From: Thermoplasmata archaeon | Lineage (GTDB): Archaea > Thermoplasmatota > Thermoplasmata > Lutacidiplasmatales > UBA184 | DNA length: 64,000 nt | Direction: 5' to 3' | Assembly: GCA_049585415.1 (NCBI GenBank) | Contig: JBAUZT010000005.1 | Location: forward strand, 3,480 to 67,479 | Shown: positions 30,215 through 50,468 of the stretch, one piece after another | Position numbering within the stretch: the stretch's first letter is position 1 | How the letters are laid out: each line of letters begins with the position of its first letter | The notes under the pieces: generated by a model | Seen by the model: only the letters and a program-made list of their open reading frames with translations | The model's database searches: none | Told to the model about the DNA's origin: nothing | Made by a program: the position numbers and the translations under genes

Positions 30215-30219
30215 AGGGC

Positions 30220-31484: not shown

Positions 31485-31491
31485 TTAAATA
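31485..31491 (+). promoter_or_regulatory. TATA box (TTAAATA) 24 nt upstream of the ubiD GTG start, in a divergent intergenic region
   Basis: Only AT-rich motif in the 88-nt divergent region between the HTH_10 gene and ubiD. Confidence 0.45.
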
Positions 31492-31514
31492 CGGCGGGCG
31501 GCTCGCTCGCCGCC

Positions 31515-33895: not shown

Positions 33896-33951
33896 TTCTC
33901 GGGGGCGAACGAGCTAAAGAGACGGCTCCGGTCACCCGATTCGGGTCCCAT

Positions 33952-34305
33952 ATGCCCCAAGTAATGATCGGCCTCTCGGCCCGCGACCACCGCACGACGA
34001 ACGAGGTGTGGCGTCTCGCGAAGCGCCATCTCAACCCGGCGGTGCGTCGACGGATCGGCTGGCGGGGCCAGTCGAGCTTCCTGCGCCAATTGATCCTCTA
34101 CGGATTCGAGAAGGCGAGCGAGAACCCCGCGGAGTTCCTCCGCGAAGTGCGGGATACGCACGACCCCTTGTTCGGGCGGCGCGGCCGCTCCGAGGCCGGC
34201 GCGGAACGACGCGAGGCCCTGCTCGTGAAATGGGAAGCGTTCTTCCCGCCGTCGGCGTCGAGTCGATCACGGAAGAAGGTCGCCCAGTCCGGCGCGGCGG
34301 ACTGA
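33952..34305 (+). CDS. Hypothetical small basic protein (possibly ribbon-helix-helix-like)
   Basis: 117 aa, MPQVMIGLSARDHRTTNEVWRLAKRHL…; no confident family assignment. Confidence 0.4.
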   Translation: MPQVMIGLSARDHRTTNEVWRLAKRHLNPAVRRRIGWRGQSSFLRQLILYGFEKASENPAEFLREVRDTHDPLFGRRGRSEAGAERREALLVKWEAFFPPSASSRSRKKVAQSGAAD

Positions 34306-34324
34306 AGGATACGGTCGAACGTCC

Positions 34325-36190: not shown

Positions 36191-36248
36191 CGGTGATGAC
36201 GTCGCGCTTACAACGCGGAGATCGACGGTTCGAATCCGTCCCGGCCCA
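36176..36248 (+). tRNA. tRNA-Val (anticodon TAC)
   Basis: Manually folded. Acceptor GGGCCGG/CCGGCCC, D-arm GTC-TAGCGGTGAT-GAC, anticodon loop CTTACAA, T-arm GACGG-TTCGAAT-CCGTC, discriminator A. 73 nt. Confidence 0.85.
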
Positions 36249-36409
36249 CGGCCCGAACGTCGATGGCCAAGGGTTCGGTGCCCCTCGGCTCCGAGCCTCC
36301 GAACCTTAGTCACACGATCGTCGCGGTCGCATCGCTCTCACCAAAAATGACGGCGAGTTGAGGGGTCTTCAGAACGGATCGGGTCGCTATGTCTCCTTTC
36401 AGAATCCAG

Positions 36410-36417
36410 TATAAGTA
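36410..36417 (+). promoter_or_regulatory. TATA box (TATAAGTA) about 25 nt upstream of the surface-protein ATG; leaderless promoter
   Basis: AT-rich motif in an otherwise GC-rich intergenic region, at the spacing expected for an archaeal TATA box relative to a start codon that coincides with the transcription start. Confidence 0.5.
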
Positions 36418-36441
36418 TCGTCACAGCTATCGAGGAAACGG

Positions 36442-39400
36442 GTGGGATCGCCGGATTTGATCGCCCCCGAAGGGACGCGGGCCGGTGCTGCGAGCGGACC
36501 CGTTCCGCATCGCACGCGTCGACGTCCGCGCTCGAATCGGCGAACCGTCGCGGTGCTGGCGGTCATAGCGTTGGTGTTCGGTGGGATGGTTCTCAACTTC
36601 GGCGTCACAGCCCCGGCGCTGACCCGGCCACAGGGTCCTGAGAACACCCCGCTCCTGGGATGCGGTTCGGCTTCGATCGGTTGTGACAATGCCGATTCAG
36701 CGACCGTTGCCTCCGCGATAACCCCCGACCTCACGGTGACCTCCAGCAACACGACCAACTTTGCCGGGTCTCCCACGCCTTTCCAGGCAGCCCTTCCGTT
36801 CGGGTTCACGGCTACGGGTTACACATGGTGGTGGGGAGATGGAAGTGTCAGCACCACCTCGACGGGAACCACATCGCACACGTACTCCTCGGCCGGAGTA
36901 TACCTGGTGTATGCCCAGGCGACCGACTCCTCTGGCCTACTGCACGACAACCTTCGGGCGATCCTCCGTCACGTCGAAGTCTCTTCGGCGACCGGGGACG
37001 CTCTCGGAAACTACCCGGAAGTCGCCGGAGCGATCGTTGCGAACAGCTCTACGAACGTGAATGCGACAGCGACCATTCCAGCCGGAGGCGCGGTAACCGT
37101 AGAGAACTGGATCGCCTCGGGGCCGTCCAACCCGGACTGGTCGCTGGGAACGCCGGACTACTTTCTCTCGGCCAACGCCGGCCCATATGCTACCCCCTCT
37201 TCCTCCATCCTGAACTCTAGCGGAATCGATGGAGTTACGGTCTCCTTCTCTCCGACCACTCCCAACGGGAGCTACGCCCTGTCGTTCTCTGCTCCCAGTC
37301 TCGGCAAGGTGAACGGGACCAGCGCAACGGTTTGGGCGAACTTCACGTTCACGGTCTTCGTCTCGTCCGGGGCGGTGACCCCCCTCCCATCCATCCCCAC
37401 TTCCCCTCACCCGGGTTCGTTGGCGGTGTATTACCAGTCGACTTTCAGCACGTGGGATTCGCAACTGGTCTACGACTCCATCGATGGGGGAATACTACAG
37501 AACGTTGTACAGAGCCTGCTCTTCCGAAACGTTTCTCACGACGGCTCAAGCCCGCAAGACCTCGTCCCGGATCTCGCGACGTGCGTACCCGGCTCCGTTC
37601 AGTGCTTCGACCTCTATGGGAACTACTTGGAAGACGCTCAGGGAGACTATACGTTCGTACTGAACCCCAACGCGACCTTCTACAATCCGACGACCGGAGG
37701 TCACGAGACGGTGTACCCCAACGACGTAGCGTTCTCGATCACTCGGGACTGCCTCCTTTCGAATTTTCTTACGGGAACCCAGGTCTTCAGCGCAGGGTAC
37801 GACCTGTGCCAGTCTCTACTTCCGGGACCTTCCTCCTTGTCGAATCCATCAAACCAGAGCTGGGACGGCGGGGTTCACTATCCGTACAACAACACACCGG
37901 CGAACATCCTCTCCGCAATCGAGGTGAACAGTAGCTCCTTTTGTCCGCCTTCCAGCCCTATGCGAGACGGCATTCACGGTAACGGATGCGTCACCCTATT
38001 GACCTCTGGCTCCGGGTCCGAATGGCCGAACTTCCTCGATTTCGTTTCGACGGCATGGGGCTCGTCGGTCGTGAACTGTGACTTGGTCTCGGCGGCAGGA
38101 TACGGCTTGCCGGGATGGGAAAACGGAATGACTTGCCTCGGCGCTCCGCCGGGGTCTGCCGGTAATTTGAACGGTGTACCCCCCAACAACGCGTGGGATG
38201 CCTCGATCACGTATCTCGCGAACACGGCGTACGACTCTCCTCTTCAGTGGGCTCTCAACGGCAGCGGCCCGTACTATGTTTCCCAGGTGATTCAAGGAGG
38301 GTCTGGCCCGACAACGGTGACTCTCGAGGCGAACCCGTACTGGGGGGGCACAACCTGCGAAGGAGGTCGACTGGCCGGTTGCTTGCCACCCGGAGACTTG
38401 GGTGGCCCTCCCCCGACGTTCATTCCCAAGGTCATCATCTATGCGAATGTCTCATCGGCGGTCGGCCTCGCCGCAGTTCGCGCAGGAAGCGCCGACCTAG
38501 TGGACCTCAACGCCTCGGAGATCCCGGCCCTCGACAACGCGCTGGAGAGCGGCCAAATCCAGGCGGCCGTCGTCCCGGGGATTGGCGTCGAGCCGCTGGG
38601 GATGAACCTCAACTACTCCACCACCGAAGCCGCAATGATCCTGGGCGCTCCGTCCACGTTGCCGTCGGACCTTCTCCAGGACATCAACCTCCGTCAATTC
38701 CTGATCAACGCGTACCCTTGGCAGACAGCGGAGACCGACTCGTGCATCGTCGGCGGAATCCAGCTCTGCCTGCAGTACGCTGGAGCGTTGCCGGCCTACA
38801 TGACCGGTTTCATCCCCACGAACCTTAGTTGGCCGATGCCCAATCCAAGCTCCAACCCGAACGTCGTCGGTGGAGCCGCATGGTGGTGGGCGCTCGCGGA
38901 CTCCGACGGCATCGTGAACGCGGCCTGTTCGGCCTCCCTGCCGTGCACTTTTCCGGTGCCTTCCGAGCAAGGAAATCCGACCTTGAGCGGTCCCCTAGCG
39001 GCGTGGGCGGCGAACGTGAAGACCCTCTCGGGCGGTGCCATCGTCCCAGAGCCCGTTCTGGTGCCGTTCTATCCTACCATCTACCTGAACGATACCGCCC
39101 CGCCCGGTCAAAGTGGTTTCGCGACCCAGTCGGATGGTTGGGCCCCCGACTTCTTCGATCCGTCCAATTACCTCAATCCGTTCTACGAGCCGGACCTCTC
39201 TTGGGGCTACTCGAACTCCTTCGCACCGGGACTGCTGCAGGCGAAGTACGAGAGTGCTTGTGCGGGGCCCGCAGCGTACCCCCAGGTCACCGAGAGCTGC
39301 CAAGGCACCGCCTACCGGGAGCTGCTCAGCCTCGCGAACGCCTCCGCGACCTGTGCCCCGCCCAGCTGCACTCTGAGCAGCCGCGAGCTTCTCTACCACG

Positions 39401-40311
39401 AAGCCGACCAACTCACCTACGGTCTCAGCCTCTATCTGCCGGTCGAACAGACCGCGGACGTGATTGGCGTCGCCCCGTGGATCGAGCTCTCGTCCCTCGC
39501 GTACGATCCGCTTTCGGGCAGCTTCGGGCTCATCGGCCAACCCTTCTTCGACATTCGCTATGCTTCGGTCGTACCGCCGGTCTATCCGCTCGAGGTAGGC
39601 GCCCTCGGAGGGTTTACTCCGGTGGGCCAGGTCCTTTCCAGCCAAGGAAGTCAGATCTCGGCAAGCGTCGCAACTCCTACCATTGAGACCGGTGAGAGCC
39701 TCCTCGTTCTCGTGAGCGTGGCCGGGGGCACGGGTGTCTATTTCTATGCTTGGCAGGGACTCCCCACGGGTTGTACCTCGGTGAACACCGGGGCCCTCGT
39801 CTGTCGACCGAACGGCACCGGCTCTTTCACCGTGTCGGTAACGGTCACGGATTCGGCCGGCGATCGGGGGACGAGCCCCCCCGAGAACGTGGAGGTGGTC
39901 GAAGGTCCCACGATATCGCGCTTCACCGTCTCCCCGGCCGCCATTCAACTCGGTGAGTCCGCCGAATTCTCGCTCGCGGCTACCGGAGGCATCGGAGGAC
40001 TGCTCCTTTCGTACTCCGGATTGCCTCTCGGATGCGCTAGCGCGAATCGGTCGTCCTTGAGCTGCACACCAATGGCAGTGGGCACATTCACCGTCGTCGC
40101 GTTCGCGCGTGACTCCCTGGGCGTGGTGGCGATCGACAACACATCGCTAACGGTATCCTCTCCTGCTTCCGGCGCTATACCATCAAGCTCGAACAACCTC
40201 CTCTATCTCGCGATCGGGGTGAGCGTCGGCGGCATCGGAGGCGCCATCGGCTCGATCACGGTGGCATGGTGGCAATGGAAGCGGAAACCTCCTCCGAAGC
40301 CAGGGCCGTGA
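36442..40311 (+). CDS. Large cell-surface glycoprotein (S-layer-like) with N-terminal signal/anchor, PKD domain, He_PIG-type Ig-like repeats and C-terminal TM anchor
   Basis: PKD signature WWWGDGS…HTYSSAGVYLVYAQATDSSG; more than 30 N-x-S/T sequons; two C-terminal repeats (…GLPTGCTS…GSFTVSVTVTDSAGDRG / …GLPLGCAS…GTFTVVAFARDSLG); terminal TM helix LLYLAIGVSVGGIGGAIGSITVAWW followed by KRKPPPKPGP. GC visibly lower than flanks. Confidence 0.8.
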   Translation: MGSPDLIAPEGTRAGAASGPVPHRTRRRPRSNRRTVAVLAVIALVFGGMVLNFGVTAPALTRPQGPENTPLLGCGSASIGCDNADSATVASAITPDLTVTSSNTTNFAGSPTPFQAALPFGFTATGYTWWWGDGSVSTTSTGTTSHTYSSAGVYLVYAQATDSSGLLHDNLRAILRHVEVSSATGDALGNYPEVAGAIVANSSTNVNATATIPAGGAVTVENWIASGPSNPDWSLGTPDYFLSANAGPYATPSSSILNSSGIDGVTVSFSPTTPNGSYALSFSAPSLGKVNGTSATVWANFTFTVFVSSGAVTPLPSIPTSPHPGSLAVYYQSTFSTWDSQLVYDSIDGGILQNVVQSLLFRNVSHDGSSPQDLVPDLATCVPGSVQCFDLYGNYLEDAQGDYTFVLNPNATFYNPTTGGHETVYPNDVAFSITRDCLLSNFLTGTQVFSAGYDLCQSLLPGPSSLSNPSNQSWDGGVHYPYNNTPANILSAIEVNSSSFCPPSSPMRDGIHGNGCVTLLTSGSGSEWPNFLDFVSTAWGSSVVNCDLVSAAGYGLPGWENGMTCLGAPPGSAGNLNGVPPNNAWDASITYLANTAYDSPLQWALNGSGPYYVSQVIQGGSGPTTVTLEANPYWGGTTCEGGRLAGCLPPGDLGGPPPTFIPKVIIYANVSSAVGLAAVRAGSADLVDLNASEIPALDNALESGQIQAAVVPGIGVEPLGMNLNYSTTEAAMILGAPSTLPSDLLQDINLRQFLINAYPWQTAETDSCIVGGIQLCLQYAGALPAYMTGFIPTNLSWPMPNPSSNPNVVGGAAWWWALADSDGIVNAACSASLPCTFPVPSEQGNPTLSGPLAAWAANVKTLSGGAIVPEPVLVPFYPTIYLNDTAPPGQSGFATQSDGWAPDFFDPSNYLNPFYEPDLSWGYSNSFAPGLLQAKYESACAGPAAYPQVTESCQGTAYRELLSLANASATCAPPSCTLSSRELLYHEADQLTYGLSLYLPVEQTADVIGVAPWIELSSLAYDPLSGSFGLIGQPFFDIRYASVVPPVYPLEVGALGGFTPVGQVLSSQGSQISASVATPTIETGESLLVLVSVAGGTGVYFYAWQGLPTGCTSVNTGALVCRPNGTGSFTVSVTVTDSAGDRGTSPPENVEVVEGPTISRFTVSPAAIQLGESAEFSLAATGGIGGLLLSYSGLPLGCASANRSSLSCTPMAVGTFTVVAFARDSLGVVAIDNTSLTVSSPASGAIPSSSNNLLYLAIGVSVGGIGGAIGSITVAWWQWKRKPPPKPGP

Positions 40312-40403
40312 TAGCTCGGCGCGGAATGTTTCCCCGTGCTGCGGTTGGAACCCGCTCTGGCATCGGTCGCTCCGGTCCCACCATCTCGACACTCGATCCG
40401 CCG

Positions 40404-40428
40404 GGCGGTTCGAACCCGTCCCGGCCCA
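40404..40428 (+). repeat. Direct repeat of the 3' end of tRNA-Val (T-arm plus acceptor 3' strand; 23/25 identical to 36224–36248); putative att remnant
   Basis: GGCGGTTCGAACCCGTCCCGGCCCA versus GACGGTTCGAATCCGTCCCGGCCCA. No matching 5' acceptor strand upstream, so it is a fragment and not a second tRNA. Confidence 0.7.
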
Positions 40429-40504
40429 TCCCTCTCCCCCGCGCCCGGACCCACCCCTCGGTGACCGGGAGTTTAATCGAGAGAACACCCCTGACCCCCC
40501 CCGC

Positions 40505-40681
40505 ATGTCCGCTGCATCCGAAGCGAGAGACGAGGCAAGGAAGGCGTTCGAGGAGGCGAGGGCCGGGATCCACAGAGGGTTCCGCGAGGCGGTGACCGCC
40601 GCACGGAAGGCCCGCCAAGCGGCGCTCGCGGCCGCGCGAGCGGCACACCGCAAAGCGCTCGCGGCCGCGCGAAAACTCTAG
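40505..40681 (+). CDS. Possible tiny ORF (58 aa) encoding an Ala/Arg-rich helical peptide with an internal repeat
   Basis: MSAASEARDEARKAFEEARAGIHRGFREAVTAARKARQAALAAARAAHRKALAAARKL. The DNA contains an 18-nt direct repeat GCGCTCGCGGCCGCGCGA. Could be non-coding. Confidence 0.25.
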   Translation: MSAASEARDEARKAFEEARAGIHRGFREAVTAARKARQAALAAARAAHRKALAAARKL

Positions 40682-40739
40682 CGCCGTTCCCCGGGATCGT
40701 TCCAGAGCCTCCGGCTCCCTCAGTCGATCGGATTCGGGA

Positions 40740-40994
40740 ATGACCGGTATCCCTCCCGGGATGGTGGACGAGGTGATTGCGGTGCTCCGAGGCTCCTCGG
40801 GACCCGTACGGAGACGGCCGCTCCTCGAGGAGCTCGAGCGGCGCGGCCATCGGATCTCCCTCGCGGGCCTCAACCGCACGCTCGAGCAGTGTCGGGCGGC
40901 CGGACTGACGATGGAGGGACCCGACGGGGTGCGCCTCAACCCGACCCCAGGGGTGCGTTCCTCGGGAAATACCGGTCATCTATCATACCTATAG
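40740..40994 (+). CDS. Possible small winged-helix-like protein (84 aa)
   Basis: MTGIPPGMVDEVIAVLRGSSGPVRRRPLLEELERRGHRISLAGLNRTLEQCRAAGLTMEG… has plausible wHTH spacing; weak evidence. Confidence 0.35.
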   Translation: MTGIPPGMVDEVIAVLRGSSGPVRRRPLLEELERRGHRISLAGLNRTLEQCRAAGLTMEGPDGVRLNPTPGVRSSGNTGHLSYL

Positions 40995-41022
40995 AAGTTT
41001 GTATAGTCTAAATTGAAATTCT

Positions 41023-41029
41023 ATATATG
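41023..41029 (+). promoter_or_regulatory. TATA box (TATATAT) in a sharply AT-rich 60-nt patch, 24 nt upstream of the phoU-like ATG
   Basis: 40981–41052 is about 70% AT within a roughly 70% GC genome. Spacing fits a leaderless transcript. Confidence 0.5.
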
Positions 41030-41052
41030 TCGCTCGCGCCCTTTTTCACTCG

Positions 41053-42120
41053 ATGAGCGAAGAGAACCTCCCGGAGGAACCGGCGTCGCGCCGGGCGCCC
41101 TCCCGACCCCGCCGGGCGCGGGAACCGACCCCGTCCGATACCCCCTTGCGAGCCACGAGCGACACCCGTCCCCCCCGTCGCCTACTTCGGCGCGGGGACG
41201 ATAACGCCTCTCGGGCTGCACCACCGTTCTCGGGCGTGCTCCTGGGTCGCCCTTCGGTAGCGACCGTGACCGTCGGCCCGCGAGAATCGTCCGAACATCT
41301 GTTCCGTCGGCTCCTCGGGGCGTACCTCGGCGGCGCCCGAGAGTTCATCGTGATCGAGCGACCCGAGGTGACGATCGGCACGCGCGAGGTCGTTCGCACG
41401 TTCTGCCGCCGCACGCGACAGCCCGAGGTGGTCTTCGAGGAGGGCGGGGTGATCCGGCTCCGCGACCTCGCGTACGAGACCCCGGTCCCGCTGCCCGAGC
41501 GCCTAACGCGGATGGGGCGGATCGTGCTCGCCTTTCACCGCGAGGCGGTCGAGAGCTGGTCGGAGCTGCCCCTCGGCGAGGACGACTACTGGGAGCGACG
41601 GGACGACGAGATCGACCGCGAGGCCTGGTACGTCCAGCGGCTCGCGGCGCTGCGTCTCCAGCTCGACCCGACCGGAGTGACGCTGCTCGGTCCCTGGACG
41701 ATCGCCCGCAGCCTCGAGCGGATCGCCGACCACGCCACGGTCATCGGCGAGACGGGCCGCCGGATCGTCGAACTGCCCCGGGGCGGCGCGGCGCTCACGT
41801 CCCTCCAGCAGTTCCACCACCAGGCGATGGACCATCTCGAGGGCGTGCTCAACGCGCGGGACGACGCGGCAGCGAACGACCTCCTCGACATGGGCGAGGC
41901 GCTGCTCGTCTCGGGCCGCGCGCTCTCCGACCGGCTCCTCCCCGCGGTCGGTGGGGGCACGATGCCTCCCGCGACCGCCGCCGCCGTGACACGGATCCTC
42001 GAGTCCATCGGCCGGACGGTCGCCTACGCGCAGGATATCGCGCAGGTCGTGCTCGACCGCGCGATCCCGGTGACGTTCTCGGAGTCTCCCGCGGACGCGG
42101 ACGAGCCGATCGCCTCGTGA
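41053..42120 (+). CDS. PhoU-domain protein (phosphate uptake regulator-like, two PhoU repeats)
   Basis: PhoU-like helical repeats including LERIADHATVIGE and ILESIGRTVAYAQDIAQ. The N-terminal roughly 60 aa are low-complexity and Arg/Pro-rich. Confidence 0.6.
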   Translation: MSEENLPEEPASRRAPSRPRRAREPTPSDTPLRATSDTRPPRRLLRRGDDNASRAAPPFSGVLLGRPSVATVTVGPRESSEHLFRRLLGAYLGGAREFIVIERPEVTIGTREVVRTFCRRTRQPEVVFEEGGVIRLRDLAYETPVPLPERLTRMGRIVLAFHREAVESWSELPLGEDDYWERRDDEIDREAWYVQRLAALRLQLDPTGVTLLGPWTIARSLERIADHATVIGETGRRIVELPRGGAALTSLQQFHHQAMDHLEGVLNARDDAAANDLLDMGEALLVSGRALSDRLLPAVGGGTMPPATAAAVTRILESIGRTVAYAQDIAQVVLDRAIPVTFSESPADADEPIAS

Positions 42121-42199
42121 ACGACCGCGCACGGGGCCGGGCGAGCGGAACGGCTTAGAGCCCCGGCGGTTCGAGGGGACTTCCGCTGAACGGTCGGTC

Positions 42200-42727
42200 A
42201 TGGCCGAACCCACTCCGAGCGCGCGCGTCGTGCTCTTCCGCCACGGTCCCGCGGAGCGCCGGGACCCGGCCCGCTGGCCGGACGACGCGCTGCGACCCTT
42301 GAGCCGTAAGGGCGTCCAACAGACCCGGCGGGCCGCTCGGGGACTCGCCCGTCAGGTCGAGCACGTGACCCGGGTCGCGTCGAGCCCCGCGGTGCGCGCC
42401 CGCCGGTCGGCCGAGATCCTCGGGGAGACCCTCGAGCCCCCGGTGCGGCCGCAGCTCTGGGCCGAGCTCGACCTCGGGACGACCGCGGCGGCGATCCTGC
42501 CGCGGCTGCGGCACGAGACCGGCGCCGGCCGCACGGTCGTGCTCGTCGGGCATGACCCGACCCTTTCCGAATTCCTCGGCCTCGCCCTCGCGGCCGAGAG
42601 CGTCGCGGTCGCGCGGCTCACGAAGGCGGGCGCCGCGTGCGTCGAGTTCCCGCGGTCCGTTCGACCGGGGTCGGGACGACTGGTCTGGCTGCTCACGCGG
42701 AGGCAGCTGGCCGTCGGGAGCGACTGA
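42200..42727 (+). CDS. sixA: Histidine-phosphatase-superfamily protein (SixA-like phosphohistidine phosphatase)
   Basis: VVLFRHGPAE (RHG catalytic motif) and VLVGHDP second His motif; 175 aa. Confidence 0.75.
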   Translation: MAEPTPSARVVLFRHGPAERRDPARWPDDALRPLSRKGVQQTRRAARGLARQVEHVTRVASSPAVRARRSAEILGETLEPPVRPQLWAELDLGTTAAAILPRLRHETGAGRTVVLVGHDPTLSEFLGLALAAESVAVARLTKAGAACVEFPRSVRPGSGRLVWLLTRRQLAVGSD

Positions 42728-43448
42728 CCGGCGGTCGAGCCGACAGGAGCGCGCGGCGCGGGGGAGCCGCGTAGAGCGGCGCGACCAGGCCGCGAACGTC
42801 CTCGTGGACTTTGTCCGGCATCCGGTTCGCGTCGACGCGGTGGAATCCGTACTCGGCGCCGACCCAGGCGAACTCCTTCGAGAGGCGGTCCTGGTAGGCG
42901 AAGAAGCTCTCGAAGAGGTCGCGGGAGAGCGAGAGGTCCATCCCCGACTCCCAGTAGTCGAGCGACCCGTACTTCGCGATCGCGCGGTGGAGCAGGATCT
43001 CGGGGCGTGCCTCGAGGAAGACCACCAGGTCCGGCTTCAAGGCGAACCCGTACAGCTGGCGGGCCCAGTCCCGCGACGCCCCCCGGACGACCGCGCGCGC
43101 CATGAGCGTGTAGATGTACCGGTCGGCGAGCACCGTGCTGCCGGCGGAGAGGGCGGGAACGATCTTGTTCTCGAGCTGGTCGGCGAAATCCACGGCGTAG
43201 AGCAGCGCCATCGTGGTCGTGCCGAGGGTGTGGCCCTGCTTCGCCTGGTCGATCTCTCCGGCGACCAGGTCGGAGCGACGGAGGCCGGTGTCGACGACCG
43301 CGTGGCCCTCCACCTCGAGCCACTCACGGAGGAGCGCCACCTCGGTCGTCCGGCCGGACCCGTCCGCGCCCTCGATGACGATCAGCTTCCCCGAGAGCGA
43401 ATGCTCGGGGAGCCCGGGGAGACGGGTGCCGTACGTCCTATCCGTCAT
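42693..43448 (-). CDS. Thymidylate-kinase-family protein A (P-loop variant GSGRTT)
   Basis: IVIEGADGSGRTT (Arg in place of the usual P-loop Lys), DRY motif LADRYIYT, LID-region arginines. Overlaps the upstream paralog by 11 nt. Confidence 0.8.
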   Translation of the reverse strand: MTDRTYGTRLPGLPEHSLSGKLIVIEGADGSGRTTEVALLREWLEVEGHAVVDTGLRRSDLVAGEIDQAKQGHTLGTTTMALLYAVDFADQLENKIVPALSAGSTVLADRYIYTLMARAVVRGASRDWARQLYGFALKPDLVVFLEARPEILLHRAIAKYGSLDYWESGMDLSLSRDLFESFFAYQDRLSKEFAWVGAEYGFHRVDANRMPDKVHEDVRGLVAPLYAAPPRRALLSARPPVSRSRRPAASA

Positions 43449-44139
43449 GCATCAGCCTCTCGGCCATGGGGAAGTTCTGGAGGATCGGCCGGACGAAGCC
43501 GCGCAGTTGTGCCTGGATCGACTCGACCGACCGGCTCGAGTCGATGACCGTGAACTCGTCCGTTCGGGCCATCCGCTCGTACTCCTGCTTCAGGCGCGTC
43601 TGGAACCGCTCGTAGCTGTCGTGCAGGTCGTCCGAGAGCCCGAGGTCCATCCCGGCCTCGTAGTAGTTGATCTTGAGACGCGAGGCGATCTTCCGCTGGA
43701 GCGTCACGGAGACCGGGACGCGGAAGTAGAAGACGCAGTCCGGTCGCGGGGCGAACGAGTAGATGTTCCGGACCCAGGCGGGGTCGCACCCCCGGGCCGC
43801 GTCCCGAACGAAGGCGGTGTAGGCGTAGCGGTCGCAGACGACCACGTACCCCGCGCGGAGCGGTGGGAGGATCTTCCGCTCGAACCGGTCGGCGAAGTCG
43901 GTAGCGTGGAGGAGCGAGAACGTCGTCGGGGTGAGGAGGTTCTTCTTCTTGCCGCGGCGGATCGTCGCCGACGTGAGCTCCGACGAGTTCCATTCGGTGA
44001 AAAAGACCCGATACCCTTGGGCCTGGAGCCACTTGCCGAGGAGCGCGGCCTGGGTCGATTTTCCGCTGCCGTCGAGCCCCTCGAAGACGAAGAGGCGTCC
44101 CGGGAACCCGTGGGTCGGGCTCGGCAGTTCAGGCATCAC
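43438..44139 (-). CDS. Thymidylate-kinase-family protein B (canonical P-loop GSGKST)
   Basis: FVFEGLDGSGKSTQA, DRY motif VCDRYAYT. Overlaps the ppx 3' end by 11 nt and the downstream paralog by 11 nt. Confidence 0.8.
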   Translation of the reverse strand: MMPELPSPTHGFPGRLFVFEGLDGSGKSTQAALLGKWLQAQGYRVFFTEWNSSELTSATIRRGKKKNLLTPTTFSLLHATDFADRFERKILPPLRAGYVVVCDRYAYTAFVRDAARGCDPAWVRNIYSFAPRPDCVFYFRVPVSVTLQRKIASRLKINYYEAGMDLGLSDDLHDSYERFQTRLKQEYERMARTDEFTVIDSSRSVESIQAQLRGFVRPILQNFPMAERLMHDG

Positions 44140-45691
44140 GGAAACGGACCTGCCGCTCGAACGTGCGCTCCATCGACCGGCGAACCCTATCCTCCCAGTG
44201 AGCGGGCAGGGTCGTAGCCGCCGGGGCGGAAAAGGCCACCGTGAGCGTTTTACCGCCGCCCCCGAGAGAGAAGCGAGGCCGCGCCGCGGAGGTCAGCTCG
44301 GCGATCTCGAGCACCGACCCGAGCCGACGGGCCGTTTCGAGGTCGGGGGCCCGGATGATCGGGAGGAACCCCTTCTTCCAGGCGGACGGGAGACCCTCGC
44401 CCTCGTGCATCCGCGCGGCCATCGAGGCGAGCAGCACTTCCCGCTGGTCGAGGCCCCAGATCGGGTAGTTCTGGATCAGGTAGGCGGAATGGTGGGCGTG
44501 TCGCCAGAGGTCGATGGAGGCGCCGCTGTCGTGCATCCACGCGGCCACCCGGAGGGCGAGCCCTTCGCTCCGTCCCCATTCGTACTCGGCCGCGAGCACG
44601 TCGAAGAGACCGAGGGCGGTATCCGCGACCTCGCGCCCGTGGTCGAGGTGGAACGAGAACGACTCCGCGGCCGCCCCCGCGGACCGTTCCGCGAGCTGCT
44701 CCGCCGGCACCGGCAGCTTGGCCCCGATCGCCTCGAGGGCGAGCCCTTCACGGATCCCCGTTCCGGCGACCACGATCCGGCCCGCGCCGGTGGCGCGGAT
44801 CAGCTCCCCGAGCACGACGATCCCCGCGACGACCACGTCCGCGCGGTCCGTGCCGATCCCGGGGATCGCGCGACGTTTCTCGGCCGGCATCTCGCCGAGG
44901 AGCTCGCCCAGCGCGTCGAGGTCGTGATCCCAGAGCGGGTAGCCGTGGACGCGCTCGATCGGATAGTCCCGGAACTCGATCGCGGCGCGCGCAAGGGACC
45001 GTAGGGTTCCTCCGACGCCGAAGACCCGGTACTTCCGGCCACCAAACGCGTCGAGGACCGAGCCCAGGGTGTCCCGGACGTGCTCCCGAAGCTCGTCGAT
45101 CTCCCGTCGTTTCGGGGGGTCGTGGTCGAGGAATCGCTGCGAGAGTCGCAGCACGCCGAGCGGGACGCTGACCGAGTTCCGCAGCTGACCCGCGCGGACC
45201 TCCGCGATCTGCATCGAACCCCCTCCGAGGTCGCAGACCAGGTCGTTCTCGAGCTCCCACGCTCCGGCGACCCCGAGGTACGCGTAGCGAGCCTCCTCCG
45301 CACCCGAAATGATCCGTAACAGGATGCCGGTCGAGCGCTCGACCTGGCGGACGAACTCGGCGCCGTTCGGCGCGTCCCGGACCGCGCTCGTCGCGACCGC
45401 GATCGTTCGGGAGAGCTCGAGGGAGCGGATCGAGAGCGCGAACCGCTCGACCGCGGCGATCCCTCGCTGGATCGCGGCGGCGCTCAAACGACCGTCCGGT
45501 CCGGTGCCGAGCCCGAGCCGGGGCGACTCCTTGGTCTCGTAGATCGCCCGTACGCTCCCCGACCCCGACGCCGCGAAGGCGACGAACCGCGCGGTGTTGG
45601 ACCCGACGTCGATCACCCCGATCGACCGACCCGGCCGGGGTCGCGTCGACTCGGTCGGCCGGTGGATTTCGACCGATCGGGAGCGGTCCAC
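44129..45691 (-). CDS. ppx: Exopolyphosphatase / guanosine pentaphosphate phosphohydrolase family (Ppx/GppA) with C-terminal HD-like domain
   Basis: ASKHA motifs IGVIDVGSNTARFV and DLGGGSMQIAEV; C-terminal helical domain with WMHDSG…HHSAY; 520 aa (true start may be internal). Confidence 0.85.
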   Translation of the reverse strand: MDRSRSVEIHRPTESTRPRPGRSIGVIDVGSNTARFVAFAASGSGSVRAIYETKESPRLGLGTGPDGRLSAAAIQRGIAAVERFALSIRSLELSRTIAVATSAVRDAPNGAEFVRQVERSTGILLRIISGAEEARYAYLGVAGAWELENDLVCDLGGGSMQIAEVRAGQLRNSVSVPLGVLRLSQRFLDHDPPKRREIDELREHVRDTLGSVLDAFGGRKYRVFGVGGTLRSLARAAIEFRDYPIERVHGYPLWDHDLDALGELLGEMPAEKRRAIPGIGTDRADVVVAGIVVLGELIRATGAGRIVVAGTGIREGLALEAIGAKLPVPAEQLAERSAGAAAESFSFHLDHGREVADTALGLFDVLAAEYEWGRSEGLALRVAAWMHDSGASIDLWRHAHHSAYLIQNYPIWGLDQREVLLASMAARMHEGEGLPSAWKKGFLPIIRAPDLETARRLGSVLEIAELTSAARPRFSLGGGGKTLTVAFSAPAATTLPAHWEDRVRRSMERTFERQVRFRDA

Positions 45692-45791
45692 GGCCCCCCA
45701 GACGGGGCGGCCCTAATAGAAGTGCGCGCGTGCGAGACCGCCCGAACCGAGGACTTACTAAGCTCGGGGGGTCCCGGACCCGGGAGAGCCG

Positions 45792-46694
45792 ATGGGGGTC
45801 GCGGCGGGCGGACGCACACGGCTCCGACCGTCGACCCTGGCCAACGAGCTCGACCGACTCCTCTCGGAGGTCGCCGGCTCCGTCGACGACGTGGTGGCCC
45901 ACTCCCATCCCTCCGCCGAGAGCCTCCACCAGCTCCACCGGGAGATGCGCCGTCTCCGGCACGCCCTCGGGATCTGGGAGCGGTTGCTCACGAGCCGCGA
46001 CCGGACGCTGGTCGCCCCGCTCGACCTCCGACTGAAGCGCCTCGCACGGTTGGTCGGTCGGGTCCGCGACCGGGACGTGATGATCGAGCTCATCGAGGGG
46101 GGGACGCTACCGCGCCCGTCCCGCCGGGACGCGTGGGCGATCGCGCGGTTGCGCGCGCGCCTTCGCGACGATGCCCGCACCGGGCGCGAGTTGCTCCGGG
46201 TCTACTTGCGGAGCGAGCGGGACGCGCACCTGTTCGAGGGGCTCCGGGAGAGCGTCGAGTTCGTCCCTCGCGCCGACGCCGGCCCCCAGCTGAGCGCGGT
46301 CCTCGAGCGAGAACAGACGCGGCGACGCTCGGACGTGCGGGCCGCCCACCGTCGGGCGCGCAAGCGACCGAGTTCGAATCGTCTCCACCAGCTGCGCATC
46401 CAGGTCCGTAGGCTCCGACACCTGGGGGAAGTGCGCCGCCGCCTCAATCCGGCACTTCGGGAACCGTTCCCGACGCCGGCGCGCCGTCTCCAAACGCGGC
46501 TCGGACGGTTGCACGACCTCGACCTCGTCCTCGCCGGCCTCGACGACGACCTCCGCTCGACCGAGTGGGGACGAGCGCTCAAGAAGGAGCGTCGCCGCGT
46601 CCGCTCCTCGGTCCGGCGTGCGCTCTATGCCTATCGGTGGCCGAAGCCCAGCGCGCCCCACGTCGCTCCCCCCGCCCGAGTGGCAGGCTCTTAG
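45792..46694 (+). CDS. CHAD-domain protein (conserved histidine alpha-helical domain; polyphosphate-associated)
   Basis: Arg/His-rich helical repeats LHQLHREMRRLRHAL and LHQLRIQVRRLRHLGE typical of CHAD. GGGAGAG Shine-Dalgarno-like sequence upstream. Divergent from ppx. Confidence 0.75.
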   Translation: MGVAAGGRTRLRPSTLANELDRLLSEVAGSVDDVVAHSHPSAESLHQLHREMRRLRHALGIWERLLTSRDRTLVAPLDLRLKRLARLVGRVRDRDVMIELIEGGTLPRPSRRDAWAIARLRARLRDDARTGRELLRVYLRSERDAHLFEGLRESVEFVPRADAGPQLSAVLEREQTRRRSDVRAAHRRARKRPSSNRLHQLRIQVRRLRHLGEVRRRLNPALREPFPTPARRLQTRLGRLHDLDLVLAGLDDDLRSTEWGRALKKERRRVRSSVRRALYAYRWPKPSAPHVAPPARVAGS

Positions 46695-46716
46695 GTGGAG
46701 CGAAGCTACCCGCGCC

Positions 46717-48228
46717 GTGCCGTTCACGGCCCGAAACGATCTTGCCGGGGGACTGCGCGTCGCGCTCGGGGAGTCCGGCGCGGTCGGCGCCACGGTGCGC
46801 CAGCTCGCGGCGCGACTGGACGACCGCCCCGAGAGGGTCGAACGGGCGCTGACCGGACTCGAAGAGCGCGGCGACGTGTTGCGGATGGGCCGGGGCCTCT
46901 ACGTCCTGCGTGATTTCGAGCGGCTCGAGGAGCGGACCGACTTCGTCGACCCGCGCGCGTTCGTGGAACGGTTCGTCCGCGAGAACGGACTCGAGCTCGG
47001 CCGCTACGGGGGACCGATCACGTTCCGGTCCAACGAGACGCTCCCCATCCACCGATGGTGGCCGTACGTCCAAGGGTACTCGGCGGAGTTCGTCCACGGA
47101 GTGCTGGTCGCCGCCGACCTTCCCCCGGACGCGACGGTGCTCGACCCGTTCGCCGGTAGCGGCACCACCCTCGTCGAAACGCGTCGGGTCGGCGCGCAAG
47201 CGCTCGGGAGCGAGCTGCTCGCTCCGGCCGTGCTCGCGGCCCGGGTGAAGACCCACTTCGAGCTGTCCCCCCGGAGACTTCGCTCGGGCGCTCGTCGGCT
47301 CCTCGACCGGGCGCGTCGGCGGCGGGACGGCCCCCTGCCGTTCCTCCGCGAAACGCGCCGCCAGTTCGACCGCGAGGCGCTCTCCCAGCTGAGCCGGTTG
47401 CGTGACGCACTCCCTACTGCGGACGGCCCGCTCGAGGACGCGCTACGGCTCGCGTTCGGGCGGATCCTGATCCCGTCGAGCCGGCTCCATCGGTCCCCCT
47501 GCCTCGGCTACGATCGTCGCCCGCACCCGGAGGGCCCGGAACCGTTCGAACGTTACCTCTCGGCGGTCGAAGAGATGGCGGACGACCTCGAGGGCCTTCG
47601 AAAGGAGCGGGCCTCCTGGGGACCGCGGGCTCGGGTCGTGGAAGGGGACGCTCGAACGGTGGCGTGGCCCCGGGGCTCGGTCGACCTCGCGGTGACGAGC
47701 CCGCCGTACGTCAACGGCATGGACTACGTCATGAACTACAAGGTCGACCTCGCCTGGCTCGGCTACGCGCATTCGTACGCGGACCTCGCACGGCTGCGCA
47801 GCGCCGAGGTCGCCTGCGACAACCTCCCGCGCACCGAGACGACCGCGTACCAGAGCGTCGTGCACACTCCGGATCCTTGGCTCGCGGAGATTCTCCCTCG
47901 GATCCGGGAAAACGTCGAGCGAAAAGGTTCCTACCGTAGGGCGGACGTGCACGCGGTCGTGCACCGGTACTTCGCGGACCTCGTTCCGGTGCTCACGCGC
48001 GTGCGGGAAGCGCTCGCCCCGGGGGGACGGTTCGTGCTCGTCGTCGGGGACTCGCTGCTCGCGGGCACGTACGTGCCCGGCGACCTCCTGACCGCGCGCA
48101 TCGGCGCGTCCCTCGGGTATCGGATCGTCTCCGTAGAGGTGGCGCGCGCCCGGCGCAGCGGACAGCGCCGATCGTTCGTCCTCCGAGAGTCGGTCGTGAC
48201 CCTCGAGCGGCCGCGCTCCGCGGGTTGA
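46717..48228 (+). CDS. DNA methyltransferase (amino-MTase; motif I FxGxG precedes motif IV SPPY) with N-terminal winged-helix domain
   Basis: VLDPFAGSGTTLVE (motif I) and DLAVTSPPYVNGMDY (motif IV); N-terminal RQLAARLDDRPERVERALTGLEERGDVLRMGRGLYVL resembles a wHTH. Start is uncertain: the ORF is open from 46618, but that would overlap the CHAD gene by 77 nt, so a GTG at 46717 is proposed. Confidence 0.75.
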   Translation: MPFTARNDLAGGLRVALGESGAVGATVRQLAARLDDRPERVERALTGLEERGDVLRMGRGLYVLRDFERLEERTDFVDPRAFVERFVRENGLELGRYGGPITFRSNETLPIHRWWPYVQGYSAEFVHGVLVAADLPPDATVLDPFAGSGTTLVETRRVGAQALGSELLAPAVLAARVKTHFELSPRRLRSGARRLLDRARRRRDGPLPFLRETRRQFDREALSQLSRLRDALPTADGPLEDALRLAFGRILIPSSRLHRSPCLGYDRRPHPEGPEPFERYLSAVEEMADDLEGLRKERASWGPRARVVEGDARTVAWPRGSVDLAVTSPPYVNGMDYVMNYKVDLAWLGYAHSYADLARLRSAEVACDNLPRTETTAYQSVVHTPDPWLAEILPRIRENVERKGSYRRADVHAVVHRYFADLVPVLTRVREALAPGGRFVLVVGDSLLAGTYVPGDLLTARIGASLGYRIVSVEVARARRSGQRRSFVLRESVVTLERPRSAG

Positions 48229-48275
48229 GCACCGAGCGGCAGATACTTCGCGCTCCGCGTGCGTACCTTCCCGGG

Positions 48276-48572
48276 ATGTACTGTCCGGTCTGCGGCCGCT
48301 CGATGACGGGCCCGACGAGCCCCACCGTGCCGTATCCGATGTTCCTCTGTGGCTACCACGGCGTCGTCTACGACCAGCGACGCGACACCTGGCACGGCCT
48401 TCCGCCGGTCGAATCGAAACTCTGCTGTCCGATCTGCGGGAGCTCGATGGAGTTCGAGCCGAAGGACTCCCCGGCGCGGATCTTCTTCTGCTACCAGTGT
48501 GGCACGACCTTTGACAAGGACCGCTCGACGTGGTACGGCCTCGCCTTCCACCAGGGGCCCGCGTCCCGGTAA
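48276..48572 (+). CDS. Hypothetical protein made of two tandem zinc-ribbon modules
   Basis: Internal duplication: MYCPVCGRSM…MFLCGYHGVVYDQRRDTWHGLP and LCCPICGSSM…IFFCYQCGTTFDKDRSTWYGLA. Start at MYCPV (48276), 45 nt after the methyltransferase stop. Confidence 0.55.
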   Translation: MYCPVCGRSMTGPTSPTVPYPMFLCGYHGVVYDQRRDTWHGLPPVESKLCCPICGSSMEFEPKDSPARIFFCYQCGTTFDKDRSTWYGLAFHQGPASR

Positions 48573-48638
48573 CCCCTCGGATGCTCTTGGAGGCAAACCC
48601 TTACCTGCCCCGACGCGCCGTTTCGAGGTGAACGGGAG

Positions 48639-49391
48639 ATGCCGCCCCGAGACGCCGAGCCGCACTTCCTCGAGCCGTTGCTCGGGGTCGTCTTCGACCT
48701 GGACGGCACGCTCGTACTCTCGCACCACGACTTCGGCCGGATGCGCGCGGAGGTGATCCGCGTCGCCGAAAAGTACGGCGTCGTCCCCGGTCACCTCTCC
48801 GTTCAGGACCCGATCCACCGCATCGTCGAGACGGCGCGCCAGGAGCTCGCCGAATCCGGCGCCCCCGAGGGGAACCTCTTCCGGTTCGAGGCCGAGTATC
48901 CGAAGCGGATCGATGCGATCGAAGCCGAGGCGTTGCCGAGAACGGTCGCCCGTTCGGGCGCCGCGGAACTGTTGCGGACGCTCTCGGAGCGGGGGTACCG
49001 GTTGGGAATCCTCACGCGCAGCTCGGAGTTCTTCGCCCGCGGCGCGCTGAAGCGGACGGAGCTCGAGTCGTTCTTCCCTTACCTGCGTTCGCGGAGCGCC
49101 CCCGGTCCGGCGAAGCCGTCCCCCGAGGCGCTCCAACTGCTCCTCAAGGAGATGGAGATCCCGAGTGAACGCGCCCTGTTCGTCGGGGACCATCTGATCG
49201 ATGCCGAGTGCGCGACGCGCGCCCGGGTGCGCTTCTACGGTGTGCTCCCGGACCCCTCGGAAGGGGGACCCGAACCGATGACCGAGGAGCGGTTCCTCGC
49301 TGGCGGCGCGTCCGCGGTCGCGAAGGACCTTCCCGAGCTCGGCCGGCACCTCGGGGTGCTCGGCGCGGCGCGTCCCACCCCGGCGGAGTGA
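48639..49391 (+). CDS. HAD-superfamily hydrolase
   Basis: Motif I VVFDLDGTLV, motif III/IV GDHLIDAE; 250 aa. Confidence 0.85.
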   Translation: MPPRDAEPHFLEPLLGVVFDLDGTLVLSHHDFGRMRAEVIRVAEKYGVVPGHLSVQDPIHRIVETARQELAESGAPEGNLFRFEAEYPKRIDAIEAEALPRTVARSGAAELLRTLSERGYRLGILTRSSEFFARGALKRTELESFFPYLRSRSAPGPAKPSPEALQLLLKEMEIPSERALFVGDHLIDAECATRARVRFYGVLPDPSEGGPEPMTEERFLAGGASAVAKDLPELGRHLGVLGAARPTPAE

Positions 49392-49404
49392 CCCGCGCGC
49401 CCGA

Positions 49405-50409
49405 TCAGAGATAGCTCGCGTGCGCGTGGATGACCGCCCGCTCGGCGGTCGCCCACGCCTCGGGGATCTGGTTCCAGCCGTTCCGCTGGTCGCCGACGCA
49501 GTAGAGTCCGGGGATCGGGGCGCCGTCCGTCGCGCGGAGCGCGCGACAATCCTCGTCCGTCACGACGTAGCCGTCCGCGTCGAACCGGCAGCCGAGCGCG
49601 GTGGAGAATTCGTGGTGCATGTCGTACCAGCCGAGGGCGCTGAACCCGCGGTCGTAGCTGCGGTGACTACCGTCCGCGAACTTCACCCCGAATCGCTGCT
49701 CGCGGATCTCGTCGAACCCCACGACCTCGAGGTCGGTGTGCCCGATCCCGTGCTCCTGGAGCTCCTTCGTGAGGGTCGCGCGCTCCTCCTCGGGGGCGCC
49801 CGAGAGCAACGGATGCCCGAGCGTGAGCATCTCGACCGACGTCGGTCGGAAGTGGAGGACGTCGAGCGCGGTCCGCGCCGCGAACGGGTCGTGGCCGAGG
49901 ACTGCGACCGATTTCCCGGTGAGCTCGTGACCGTCGCACAGGATGCAGAAATCGACGAGCGCCTGGTTCGCCCACGGGAAGATCGTGTCGATCTTGCCCC
50001 CGACCTCGGGGATCCGGTCGACGACGCCTTGCGCGAGGACGAGCGCTCGACCCCGGGCGACGTGCGTCTGCTTCAGCCAGTCGAACGTGACGGAGTAACC
50101 GGTCTCGGTGCGCTCGACCGCGACCGCGCGCGCCGGGGTGAAGTAGCCGACCGCCTCCGAGCTCCGCACCGCCGCGACCTGCGCGTCGAGGAGCTTGTGC
50201 CCCGAGATCCCCGCCGGAAAGCCGGGGATGTTGTCCATCTTCGGCGCGTAGTACGACCGGGAGTACTTCGGCCCGCGATCGATGATCGCCGCGGAGTATC
50301 CGAGGAGGGCCGCCTTGTATCCGGCCTGGAGCCCGGCGTGTCCTCCACCGACGACGACGAAATCGTACGACGCTCGCAGGCGCGGTAGCCCCGGCACTTC
50401 CGAGCCCAC
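49405..50409 (-). CDS. Thioredoxin-reductase-like FAD/NAD(P)-dependent disulfide oxidoreductase
   Basis: FAD motif FVVVGGGHAGLQAG, redox CxxC CILCDGH, second dinucleotide motif VAVLGHDPFA. Confidence 0.8.
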   Translation of the reverse strand: MGSEVPGLPRLRASYDFVVVGGGHAGLQAGYKAALLGYSAAIIDRGPKYSRSYYAPKMDNIPGFPAGISGHKLLDAQVAAVRSSEAVGYFTPARAVAVERTETGYSVTFDWLKQTHVARGRALVLAQGVVDRIPEVGGKIDTIFPWANQALVDFCILCDGHELTGKSVAVLGHDPFAARTALDVLHFRPTSVEMLTLGHPLLSGAPEEERATLTKELQEHGIGHTDLEVVGFDEIREQRFGVKFADGSHRSYDRGFSALGWYDMHHEFSTALGCRFDADGYVVTDEDCRALRATDGAPIPGLYCVGDQRNGWNQIPEAWATAERAVIHAHASYL

Positions 50410-50468
50410 TCGGCGGGGGAATTTCAGCCCTCCTTCGTCCGCGCGGCGCGTCGCGCATCGAAAAATCC

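Follow-up and report, generated by a model that had tools for sequence, protein, structure and literature searches.

A probable polyphosphate metabolism cluster organised around a family 3 polyphosphate kinase (PPK3) pair in an uncultured Thermoplasmata archaeon

We analysed a 64-kb stretch of DNA from an uncultured Thermoplasmata archaeon (hereafter the window; ~70% GC, 0.696), in which six neighbouring genes encode a PhoU-like protein, a SixA-like histidine phosphatase, two thymidylate kinase-like (Tmk-like A and B) proteins, a Ppx/GppA exopolyphosphatase (PPX) and a CHAD-domain protein (Table 1). Based on gene content, sequence motifs, clade membership, synteny and co-occurrence, this locus is very probably a polyphosphate (polyP) metabolism cluster organised around PPK3, the two-subunit family 3 polyphosphate kinase of Sulfolobus (Höfmann et al., J Biol Chem 2026, PMC12995831). 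The SaPPK3 heteromer consists of Saci_2019 (cPPK3, the catalytic subunit) and Saci_2020 (rPPK3, inactive and regulatory); rPPK3 activates cPPK3 by oligomerisation in an alpha2-beta2 complex, and the reaction is reversible, with a strong preference in vitro for formation of ATP from polyP and ADP (PMC12995831). The enzymology of SaPPK3 and the binding of polyP by CHAD proteins are taken from the literature; for the window locus we infer complex formation, the direction of flux, the inactivity of the rPPK3-like subunit and the roles of the SixA-like and PhoU-like proteins.

The two Tmk-like proteins score 71.2 and 98.8 bits against a Pfam Thymidylate_kin cutoff of 27, and their motifs set them apart from one another. 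Protein B reads GSGKST...DRY and has a predicted pI of 9.3, while protein A reads GSGRTT...DRY and has a predicted pI of 6.6, which marks B as cPPK3-like and A as rPPK3-like. By sequence, the product of the B gene is a cPPK3-like protein for which an ATP:polyP phosphotransferase role is predicted. Its P-loop (GSGKST), TEWNSS, RRGKKK and DRY motifs are all intact, and the alignment with its best solved relative, STK_15430 (2plr/5h70), has the invariant basic residues K64, K65, R85, R88, R112, R116 and R149 in common. STK_15430 was recovered in a PDB sequence search with E=1.8e-59 and 204 bits (46% identity in the alignment), versus E=2.9e-16 and 63 bits for the best true thymidylate kinase (dTMPK). 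The crystal structure of this protein (PDB 5h70) has been named as that of a cPPK3 homologue (PMC12995831). The closest homologues of the kinase are 79-91% identical and come, wherever a name is given, from Thermoplasmata metagenome-assembled genomes (MAGs).

Protein A is a paralogue with the dTMPK fold whose Walker A motif reads GSGRTT (Lys to Arg) and which keeps DRY. Its best solved relative is again STK_15430 (2plr/5h70; E=5.1e-35), with true dTMPKs at ~1e-13 in the same kind of search. From the cPPK3-like to the rPPK3-like member of the window pair, IRRGKKKN becomes IDQAKQGH and TEWNSS becomes DTGLRRS, and the KKK basic patch is gone.

To place the pair among its relatives, GTDB species representatives were scanned with a cPPK3 alignment, which gave 80 loci: 22 from Thermoplasmata MAGs (68-90% identity), three of Sulfolobales type (46-49%), ~25 canonical dTMPK loci (<40%), and a further ~25 bacterial loci from many phyla plus three from Nitrososphaeria, these last two groups being mostly 51-58% identical. 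In all PPK3 loci with both genes on the contig the order is c-then-r, with r immediately after c. A neighbour-joining tree of 132 sequences resolves the first-of-pair (54) and second-of-pair (49) proteins into two unmixed clades that are together set apart from canonical dTMPKs; the window cPPK3-like protein joins STK_15430 and the first-of-pair proteins of Sulfolobales, and the window rPPK3-like protein joins the second-of-pair (rPPK3-position) proteins of Sulfolobales. The Walker A lysine and DRY are each present in 52/52 proteins of the cPPK3 clade, and the basic patch holds 4-5 Lys or Arg residues in that clade versus 1-2.7 in the rPPK3 clade.

The comparison also bears on what defines the regulatory subunit. 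Inactivity of rPPK3 has been attributed to replacement of the DRX arginine (PMC12995831). Among rPPK3-clade proteins, DRY is kept in 45/45 outside Sulfolobales, and DGY occurs in 3/3 of the Sulfolobales-type loci; since DGY is confined to those three loci, loss of the DRX arginine is lineage-specific rather than family-defining. The Walker A arginine is found in 48/48. Thus the mark that all rPPK3s carry is the Walker A Lys-to-Arg change rather than a lost DRX arginine.

Gene neighbourhoods were compared by running iterative profiles built from the window proteins against the open reading frames (ORFs) of all the 20-kb loci. Archaea and bacteria together contributed 53 PPK3-pair loci, of which 43 have PPX, 37 SixA, 37 CHAD and 20 PhoU, with PPX, SixA and CHAD together in 30; these counts are lower bounds because many contigs end early. 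The 25 canonical dTMPK loci that served as controls gave 0, 2, 0 and 0, respectively. Co-localisation of PPX, SixA and CHAD with the PPK3 pair is thus far beyond chance, and the association of CHAD with a Tmk-like pair, which the initial annotation had singled out for comparison with other genomes, recurs widely (37/53 PPK3 loci versus 0/25 controls). The exact window layout was found in at least 11 species-representative Thermoplasmata loci that span the block (L001-L004, L006-L011 and L019): HAD-family phosphatase (HAD), methyltransferase (MTase) and CHAD leftward, PPX-cPPK3-rPPK3 rightward, and SixA-PhoU leftward, with HAD and MTase present where the contig reaches. Within this set L011 differs only by an absent MTase, and two further loci whose contigs end on one side (L005, L012) agree as far as they reach. 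The Sulfolobales loci have the order SixA-PPX-c-r-CHAD, equal to saci_2017-2021.

Several observations weigh against reading the locus as a PPK3 cluster. Both Tmk-like proteins pass the NCBIfam dTMP-kinase equivalog TIGR00041 (102.6 and 83.3 bits versus a cutoff of 83.25) as well as Pfam Thymidylate_kin, and homologues of the pair are labelled 'dTMP kinase' in the NCBI and JGI databases, as would suit true thymidylate (dTMP) kinases or DNA-precursor nucleotide kinases whose position beside ppx and CHAD is incidental. The tree that separates the clades is distance-based and carries no bootstrap support. The window rPPK3 keeps DRY, so that the published explanation of inactivity by a lost DRX arginine does not fit it and the Walker A Lys-to-Arg change is the only ground for presuming it inactive. 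Finally, in other phyla the PPK3 loci lack the HAD and MTase genes of the Thermoplasmata loci (13/22 and 12/22, respectively), and the links of PhoU, HAD and MTase, which are largely lineage-specific, could be inherited synteny.

The alignment columns also bear on the identity of the kinases. The D-R arginine column of canonical dTMPKs (R in 25/25) is F in the cPPK3 clade and F in 44/48 of the rPPK3 clade; the E-P pair (25/25) is W-N in cPPK3, within the TEWNSS columns, and TEWNSS is lost in the rPPK3 clade; and the A-Y-Q motif (Y in 23/25, Q in 18/25) reads x-R-D in the cPPK3 clade and is variable in the rPPK3 clade. Taken together, the DR arginine, EP and S-x-x-A-Y-Q columns of canonical dTMPKs (n=25) are replaced in 100/100 PPK3-clade proteins. 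From dTMPK structures in general, these columns are expected to include contacts with dTMP. The published analysis likewise found the dTMP-binding residues of dTMPKs unconserved in PPK3, and neither Saci_2019 nor Saci_2020 had dTMPK activity by 31P nuclear magnetic resonance, with Saci_0893 active (PMC12995831). The closest solved relative of the pair is the cPPK3 homologue and not a true dTMPK, and PPX, SixA and CHAD accompany the pair in 30-43 of the 53 loci across phyla, against none of the 25 canonical dTMPK loci for PPX and CHAD. On motifs, structural relatives, clades and neighbourhood we rejected true thymidylate kinases, an identity that now appears very improbable, and retain the assignment to PPK3. 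Among the examined ORFs of the window there is no third tmk, ppk1 or ppk2, although no search was aimed at them.

The genes ppx and the two tmk-like genes, an operon in the initial annotation, lie on the same strand with an 11-nt overlap at both junctions (GTGATGCCTGA at ppx/TmkB and ATGACGGATAG at TmkB/TmkA), and the overlapping stop and start codons are, by sequence, the signature of a translationally coupled ppx-cPPK3-rPPK3 operon, of which ppx is the first gene. In an alignment of 16 loci, the A/T block before the ppx start is the only conserved short A/T-rich stretch in the ppx-CHAD intergenic region, which suggests a leaderless transcript of the ppx operon with this block as the putative promoter. 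An operator common to this region and the one upstream of phoU was considered, given that CCTATAGAAGT resembles CCTAATAGAAGT, and was rejected on the 16-locus alignment; since the TATA-like block alone is conserved before ppx, we claim no shared operator.

The remaining core genes flank the operon. The convergent overlap of sixA with the gene for Tmk-like A is exactly the 35 nt reported earlier (42693-42727), and this SixA/rPPK3 overlap is kept in relatives. The SixA-like protein belongs to branch 1 of the histidine phosphatases and has an RHG catalytic motif at residues 14-16, as read from its translation. CHAD proteins are described as attaching to polyP granules (PMC10892726). The window CHAD gene is divergent from ppx, as first proposed, and a GGGAG string does stand 5 nt before its ATG, with GGAGG-like strings in several relatives; as a sign of a Shine-Dalgarno sequence such a string is weak evidence in DNA of 70% GC. 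Beyond CHAD, the HAD gene stays adjacent in loci that have no MTase (L011, L012) and in one with a rearranged block (L021, in which it lies beside SixA), a hint of a possible functional tie between the HAD phosphatase and the polyP genes.

All six ORFs were recovered at the exact coordinates of the initial annotation in a mechanical ORF listing, and its assignments to PhoU, SixA, the Tmk-like pair, Ppx/GppA and CHAD stand, all six proteins exceeding the Pfam gathering scores. Full-length NCBIfam models are stricter, and three proteins miss their cutoffs: the PhoU-like protein reaches 33.6 bits with TIGR02135, the full-length bacterial PhoU model (cutoff 130); the SixA-like protein reaches 63.2 bits with TIGR00249 sixA (cutoff 74.5), which is its best-scoring NCBIfam model and is matched over its whole length; and the exopolyphosphatase reaches 269.4 bits with its best model, TIGR03706 exo_poly_only (cutoff 307), versus 123 bits with the GppA model.

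We propose that ppx, cPPK3 and rPPK3 are expressed from one probably leaderless mRNA, with translation coupled through the overlapping stop and start codons, and that the two thymidylate-kinase-fold proteins would assemble, on the model of SaPPK3, as a heteromer (alpha2-beta2 in Sulfolobus). The cPPK3 subunit, with its P-loop lysine, DRY and a putative basic polyP cleft, would transfer phosphate reversibly, from ATP to the polyP chain or from the chain to ADP; the rPPK3 subunit, which would be catalytically disabled through its Walker A arginine and missing basic patch, would activate cPPK3 through oligomerisation. Net polyP synthesis would then be expected only at high ATP/ADP, and ATP would be regenerated from polyP at low energy charge. 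PPX would hydrolyse polyP to Pi, the CHAD protein would bind or decorate polyP granules, and the SixA-like and AbrB-less PhoU-like proteins, both expressed from a strongly conserved promoter, would probably adjust this metabolism to the phosphate or energy state. The suggestion that this is a self-contained locus for polyP formation and turnover holds in its broad outline, matching the Sulfolobus acidocaldarius operon and the co-occurrence across phyla; its 'polyP synthase' is half the story, because PPK3 is reversible and favours ATP formation from polyP and ADP in vitro.

The PhoU-like protein has a match of 100% identity in NCBI, named 'PhoU domain-containing protein [Thermoplasmata archaeon]'. 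Pfam detects one PhoU repeat only, a search of PDB sequences gave nothing at E<=1, and an hhalign comparison of residues 145-240 with 241-345 for a second repeat was not significant (probability 3.5%). An AlphaFold model built with 29 homologues (mean predicted local distance difference test score 75.8, high confidence over residues 68-337) has a disordered segment at residues 1-66, a small alpha/beta domain at 68-142 and six long helices at 147-336. The top PDB matches in Foldseek are the PhoU structures 1xwm, 1t8b, 4q25 and 1t72, with ~202-208 aligned columns and target-normalised TM-scores of 0.64-0.77 (0.70-0.77 for 1xwm, 1t8b and 4q25). From these matches, the C-terminal ~190 residues are predicted to form the complete six-helix PhoU fold, the second repeat being supported by the structure model and Foldseek only.

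The N-terminal part differs from that of related archaeal proteins. No match to AbrB/SpoVT (PF04014) was found in the window protein even at E<=5; this domain is present in the more distant orthologues of L013, L015 and L021, in a canonical paralogue at L004:1840-2856 (PF04014 + PF01895) and in L029. Here, and in close orthologues, a non-conserved tail rich in Pro and Arg takes its place, so that the PhoU-like protein is not obviously a DNA-binding regulator. A literature search on archaeal AbrB-PhoU proteins returned nothing useful. The domain at residues 68-142 (41254-41478) is modelled as beta-alpha-beta-alpha-beta-beta and has weak Foldseek matches to Alba/Sso10b2 (1udv, 2h9u) and YhbY (1jo0), with E of 0.2-0.5 and target-normalised TM-scores of 0.5-0.64; we treat this modelled resemblance to nucleic-acid-binding folds as a lead only.

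Upstream of phoU-like lies a 27-mer, TATAGTCTAAATTGAAATTCTATATAT, which occurs once in the window (0 expected by chance) and recurs almost unchanged before the orthologous gene in at least nine Thermoplasmata species, in which the coding DNA is only ~72-78% identical. It was found at no other position in the window or in the compared loci. The element contains the TATA-like box TTCTATATAT, centred ~29 nt before the phoU-like ATG; judged by the usual archaeal spacing from TATA box to transcription start site, this position is compatible with an mRNA that is leaderless or has a very short leader, with the box as a putative promoter element. Conservation of TATAGTCTAAATTGAAATTCTATATAT exceeds what a TATA box needs, and the element may therefore be an operator. 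A CTATRG box lies ~10 nt upstream of it. Thus, of the earlier description of a PhoU regulator behind an AT-rich leaderless promoter, the AT-rich stretch is real, conserved across species and compatible with a leaderless transcript, while the word 'regulator' is still tentative, with AbrB absent and the link to PhoU found mostly in Thermoplasmata.

These data leave room for an arrangement in which the polyP core (ppx-cPPK3-rPPK3, CHAD and SixA) is functional and the PhoU-like gene, like the MTase and HAD genes, is a mere syntenic neighbour with no part in polyP control. PhoU is adjacent in 16/22 Thermoplasmata loci versus 4/31 PPK3 loci elsewhere, HAD and MTase occur in Thermoplasmata loci only, the PhoU-like protein is without the AbrB DNA-binding domain, and the main text of PMC12995831 does not mention PhoU among PPK-associated genes. 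On the other side, PhoU-domain genes flank PPK3 in unrelated lineages (Nitrosotenuis L029; Chloroflexia L036, in which phoU is directly upstream of ppx and co-directional; L044; L052), PhoU lies within a few kb even in the rearranged Thermoplasmata loci L013, L015 and L021, and in the window sixA starts 79 nt 3' of phoU-like on the same strand. PhoU proteins are, moreover, phosphate-signalling components. We regard a bystander role for the PhoU-like protein as a serious possibility, though somewhat doubtful, and keep it and SixA as candidate regulators of the polyP cluster.

A bolder proposal joins these elements. In most PPK3 systems, that of the window included, rPPK3 might be no dead enzyme but a nucleotide-binding sensor that gates the kinase by ATP/ADP, an idea that draws on the retained DRX arginine and the conservative Walker A Lys-to-Arg change in 48/48 proteins, and in Thermoplasmata it might act together with an AbrB-less PhoU-like/SixA phosphate-status module behind the 27-nt element. 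We consider this combination unlikely as it stands; if true, it would amount to a self-contained switch, sensing both energy and phosphate, from storage of polyP to ATP regeneration driven by polyP and back, in a large, uncultured archaeal lineage of soil and peat for which no PPK3 was known before. Separately, tandem Tmk-like pairs with the Walker A lysine in both copies were seen in a Gracilibacteria MAG (L051:4557-6222) and an Altarchaeum MAG (L053:331-1921). Their proteins branch basal to the c and r clades or outside them, and may represent the state of the PPK3 duplication before degeneration or a different paired kinase.

The DNA preceding the locus was examined for its origin, as the initial annotation had suggested that the polyP block was brought in or rearranged with an island at the tRNA-Val gene. 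The 3' end of this tRNA (36226-36248, 23 nt) is indeed repeated, with one mismatch, at 40406-40428, 625 nt upstream of phoU, and the DNA between tRNA-Val and phoU is lower in GC than the window (0.632 versus 0.696). In L001, the alignment covers window positions 28697-36248 and resumes at 40984-54120, and L003 has a similar break, with alignment resuming slightly further into phoU; this break identifies 36249-40983 as a 4.7-kb insertion, absent from both, of which 36226-40428 is the repeat-bounded part. Its ORFs encode a 1289-aa PKD/SBP_bac_5-like secreted protein (36442-40311) and an 84-aa product (40740-40994), with no recognisable integrase among them. The insertion thus lies upstream of the block. 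L001 and L003 have tRNA-Val immediately before phoU...carB in the same gene order, the block order is the same in 11 species-representative genomes, and the polyP genes, with a window-typical GC of 0.68-0.73, lie outside the repeat-bounded segment. Since the block is outside the insertion and syntenic with relatives, its arrival with the island finds no support and is scarcely credible. At the same tRNA-Val/phoU junction, L002, L011 and L019 carry other segments of 5-6 kb and normal GC; within this variable segment ARAGORN calls in L019 (8132-8221) a tRNA-like gene with an undetermined four-base anticodon (cccg).

Coordinates of the locus and of the genes 3' of CHAD are collected in Table 1. 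An identical public contig exists in Logan (SRR28061373), on which the same genes were called independently, with products of 251, 175, 355 and 84 aa. The window flanks consist of ordinary core genes, encoding a tRNA-guanine transglycosylase-like protein (archaeosine-type; DUF5591, TGT_C2, PUA), UbiD, UbiA, a helicase, the carbamoyl-phosphate synthase large chain and a class I (Trp/Tyr-type) tRNA synthetase.

Table 1. Features of the polyP locus and adjoining genes, in positions of the window
Feature	Positions	Strand	Remarks
Conserved promoter/operator-like element TATAGTCTAAATTGAAATTCTATATAT	41002-41028	+	Upstream of phoU-like
TATA-like box TTCTATATAT	41019-41028	+	Part of TATAGTCTAAATTGAAATTCTATATAT
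PhoU-like, 355 aa	41053-42120	+	Pfam PhoU 37.4 bits (cutoff 23.5)
SixA-like histidine phosphatase, 175 aa	42200-42727	+	His_Phos_1 40.2 bits (cutoff 21.7)
rPPK3-like (Tmk-like A), 251 aa	42693-43448	-	Pfam Thymidylate_kin (cutoff 27)
cPPK3-like (Tmk-like B), 233 aa	43438-44139	-	Pfam Thymidylate_kin (cutoff 27)
Ppx/GppA exopolyphosphatase, 520 aa	44129-45691	-	Ppx-GppA 185.3 bits (cutoff 27); domain III 48.5 bits
TATA-like box (TAATAGAAGT on + strand)	45714-45723	-	Centred ~27 nt upstream of ppx GTG
CHAD-domain protein, 300 aa	45792-46694	+	Pfam CHAD 85.1 bits (cutoff 25.6), profile positions 4-222/228
N6/N4-type methyltransferase	46618-48228	+	Pfam; 3' neighbour of CHAD
Zn-ribbon ORF	48225-48572	+	3' of methyltransferase
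HAD-family phosphatase	48639-49391	+	Pfam

The PPK3 system itself is already published, and PPX, SixA and CHAD have been named as its neighbours in a genomic-neighbourhood analysis (PMC12995831). What is added here is the Thermoplasmata hosts, the PhoU-like partner and the retention of the rPPK3 DRX arginine outside Sulfolobales. The main text of that paper mentions neither Thermoplasmata nor PhoU, and does not report this retention; part of this may be in its supplementary tables. Within the literature searched, no paper combines PPK3 with Thermoplasmat*. Reports of the family have so far centred on Sulfolobaceae, Nitrososphaeraceae and a few bacteria; the locus occurs in at least 22 species-representative Thermoplasmata genomes, from soils, peat and sediments, so PPK3 is common in this lineage. 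A systematic mis-annotation is thereby corrected, since hundreds of proteins of the lineage named 'dTMP kinase' are most likely PPK3 subunits, and the definition of the family is refined in that rPPK3 is marked by the Walker A change. The locus also offers a plausible route to phosphate storage and energy buffering in uncultured Thermoplasmata. The value of these additions is incremental, and the picture of how such loci work is unchanged.

The closest known counterpart is the SaPPK3 operon, which comprises saci_2017 (sixA), saci_2018 (ppx), saci_2019 (cPPK3), saci_2020 (rPPK3) and saci_2021 (CHAD) (PMC12995831). The window locus has the same five gene families, with ppx directly upstream of cPPK3 and rPPK3 immediately after it; its kinase subunits belong to the same pair of clades (~47% identity to the Sulfolobales proteins for cPPK3, ~35% for rPPK3), the catalytic one with intact P-loop and DRY and the regulatory one with the Walker A arginine. 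It differs in that the host is a Thermoplasmata MAG and not a crenarchaeote, that sixA is convergent and CHAD divergent, both outside the ppx operon, that the rPPK3 keeps the DRX arginine lost in Sulfolobales rPPK3s, and that it has an AbrB-less PhoU-like gene in addition. STK_15430 of Sulfurisphaera tokodaii (PDB 2plr, 4nzy, 4rzx, 5h70), deposited as a 'probable thymidylate kinase', resembles the window cPPK3 in its P-loop, TEWNSS, KKK-LLTP, HATDF-DR and DRY-YTA-RD motifs, and differs as a single catalytic subunit crystallised alone.

Putative bacterial and thaumarchaeal PPK3 operons have PPX, SixA, CHAD, Pst or Nudix neighbours (Fig. 5, PMC12995831). Like the window locus, those in our comparison have r following c, and the order of PPX, SixA and CHAD around the pair varies (CHAD-SixA-c-r-PPX in Bacteroidota and Ignavibacteriota, PPX-c-r in Proteobacteria, SixA-PPX-c-r-CHAD in Nitrosotenuis), and their rPPK3s have DRY with the Walker A arginine; they differ in their cPPK3 (~51-58% identity to that of the window), in the absence of HAD and MTase and in that PhoU is rarely adjacent. 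An analogy has been drawn with two-domain class II PPK2, in which an inactive paralogous module activates the P-loop kinase module via oligomerisation (PMC12995831); this class, of which P. aeruginosa PA3455 is an example, differs in belonging to another P-loop kinase family (PPK2), in having fused domains rather than subunits and in its AMP kinase specificity. With regard to the PhoU-like protein, its modelled C-terminal part shares the six-helix fold of bacterial PhoU (1xwm, 1t8b, 4q25), although the full-length model cutoff is missed. Archaeal AbrB/SpoVT-PhoU 'phosphate uptake regulator' proteins have the middle domain and an 'EHLFRRLLGAY' motif in common with it, and carry an N-terminal DNA-binding domain where the window protein has its disordered, non-conserved tail.

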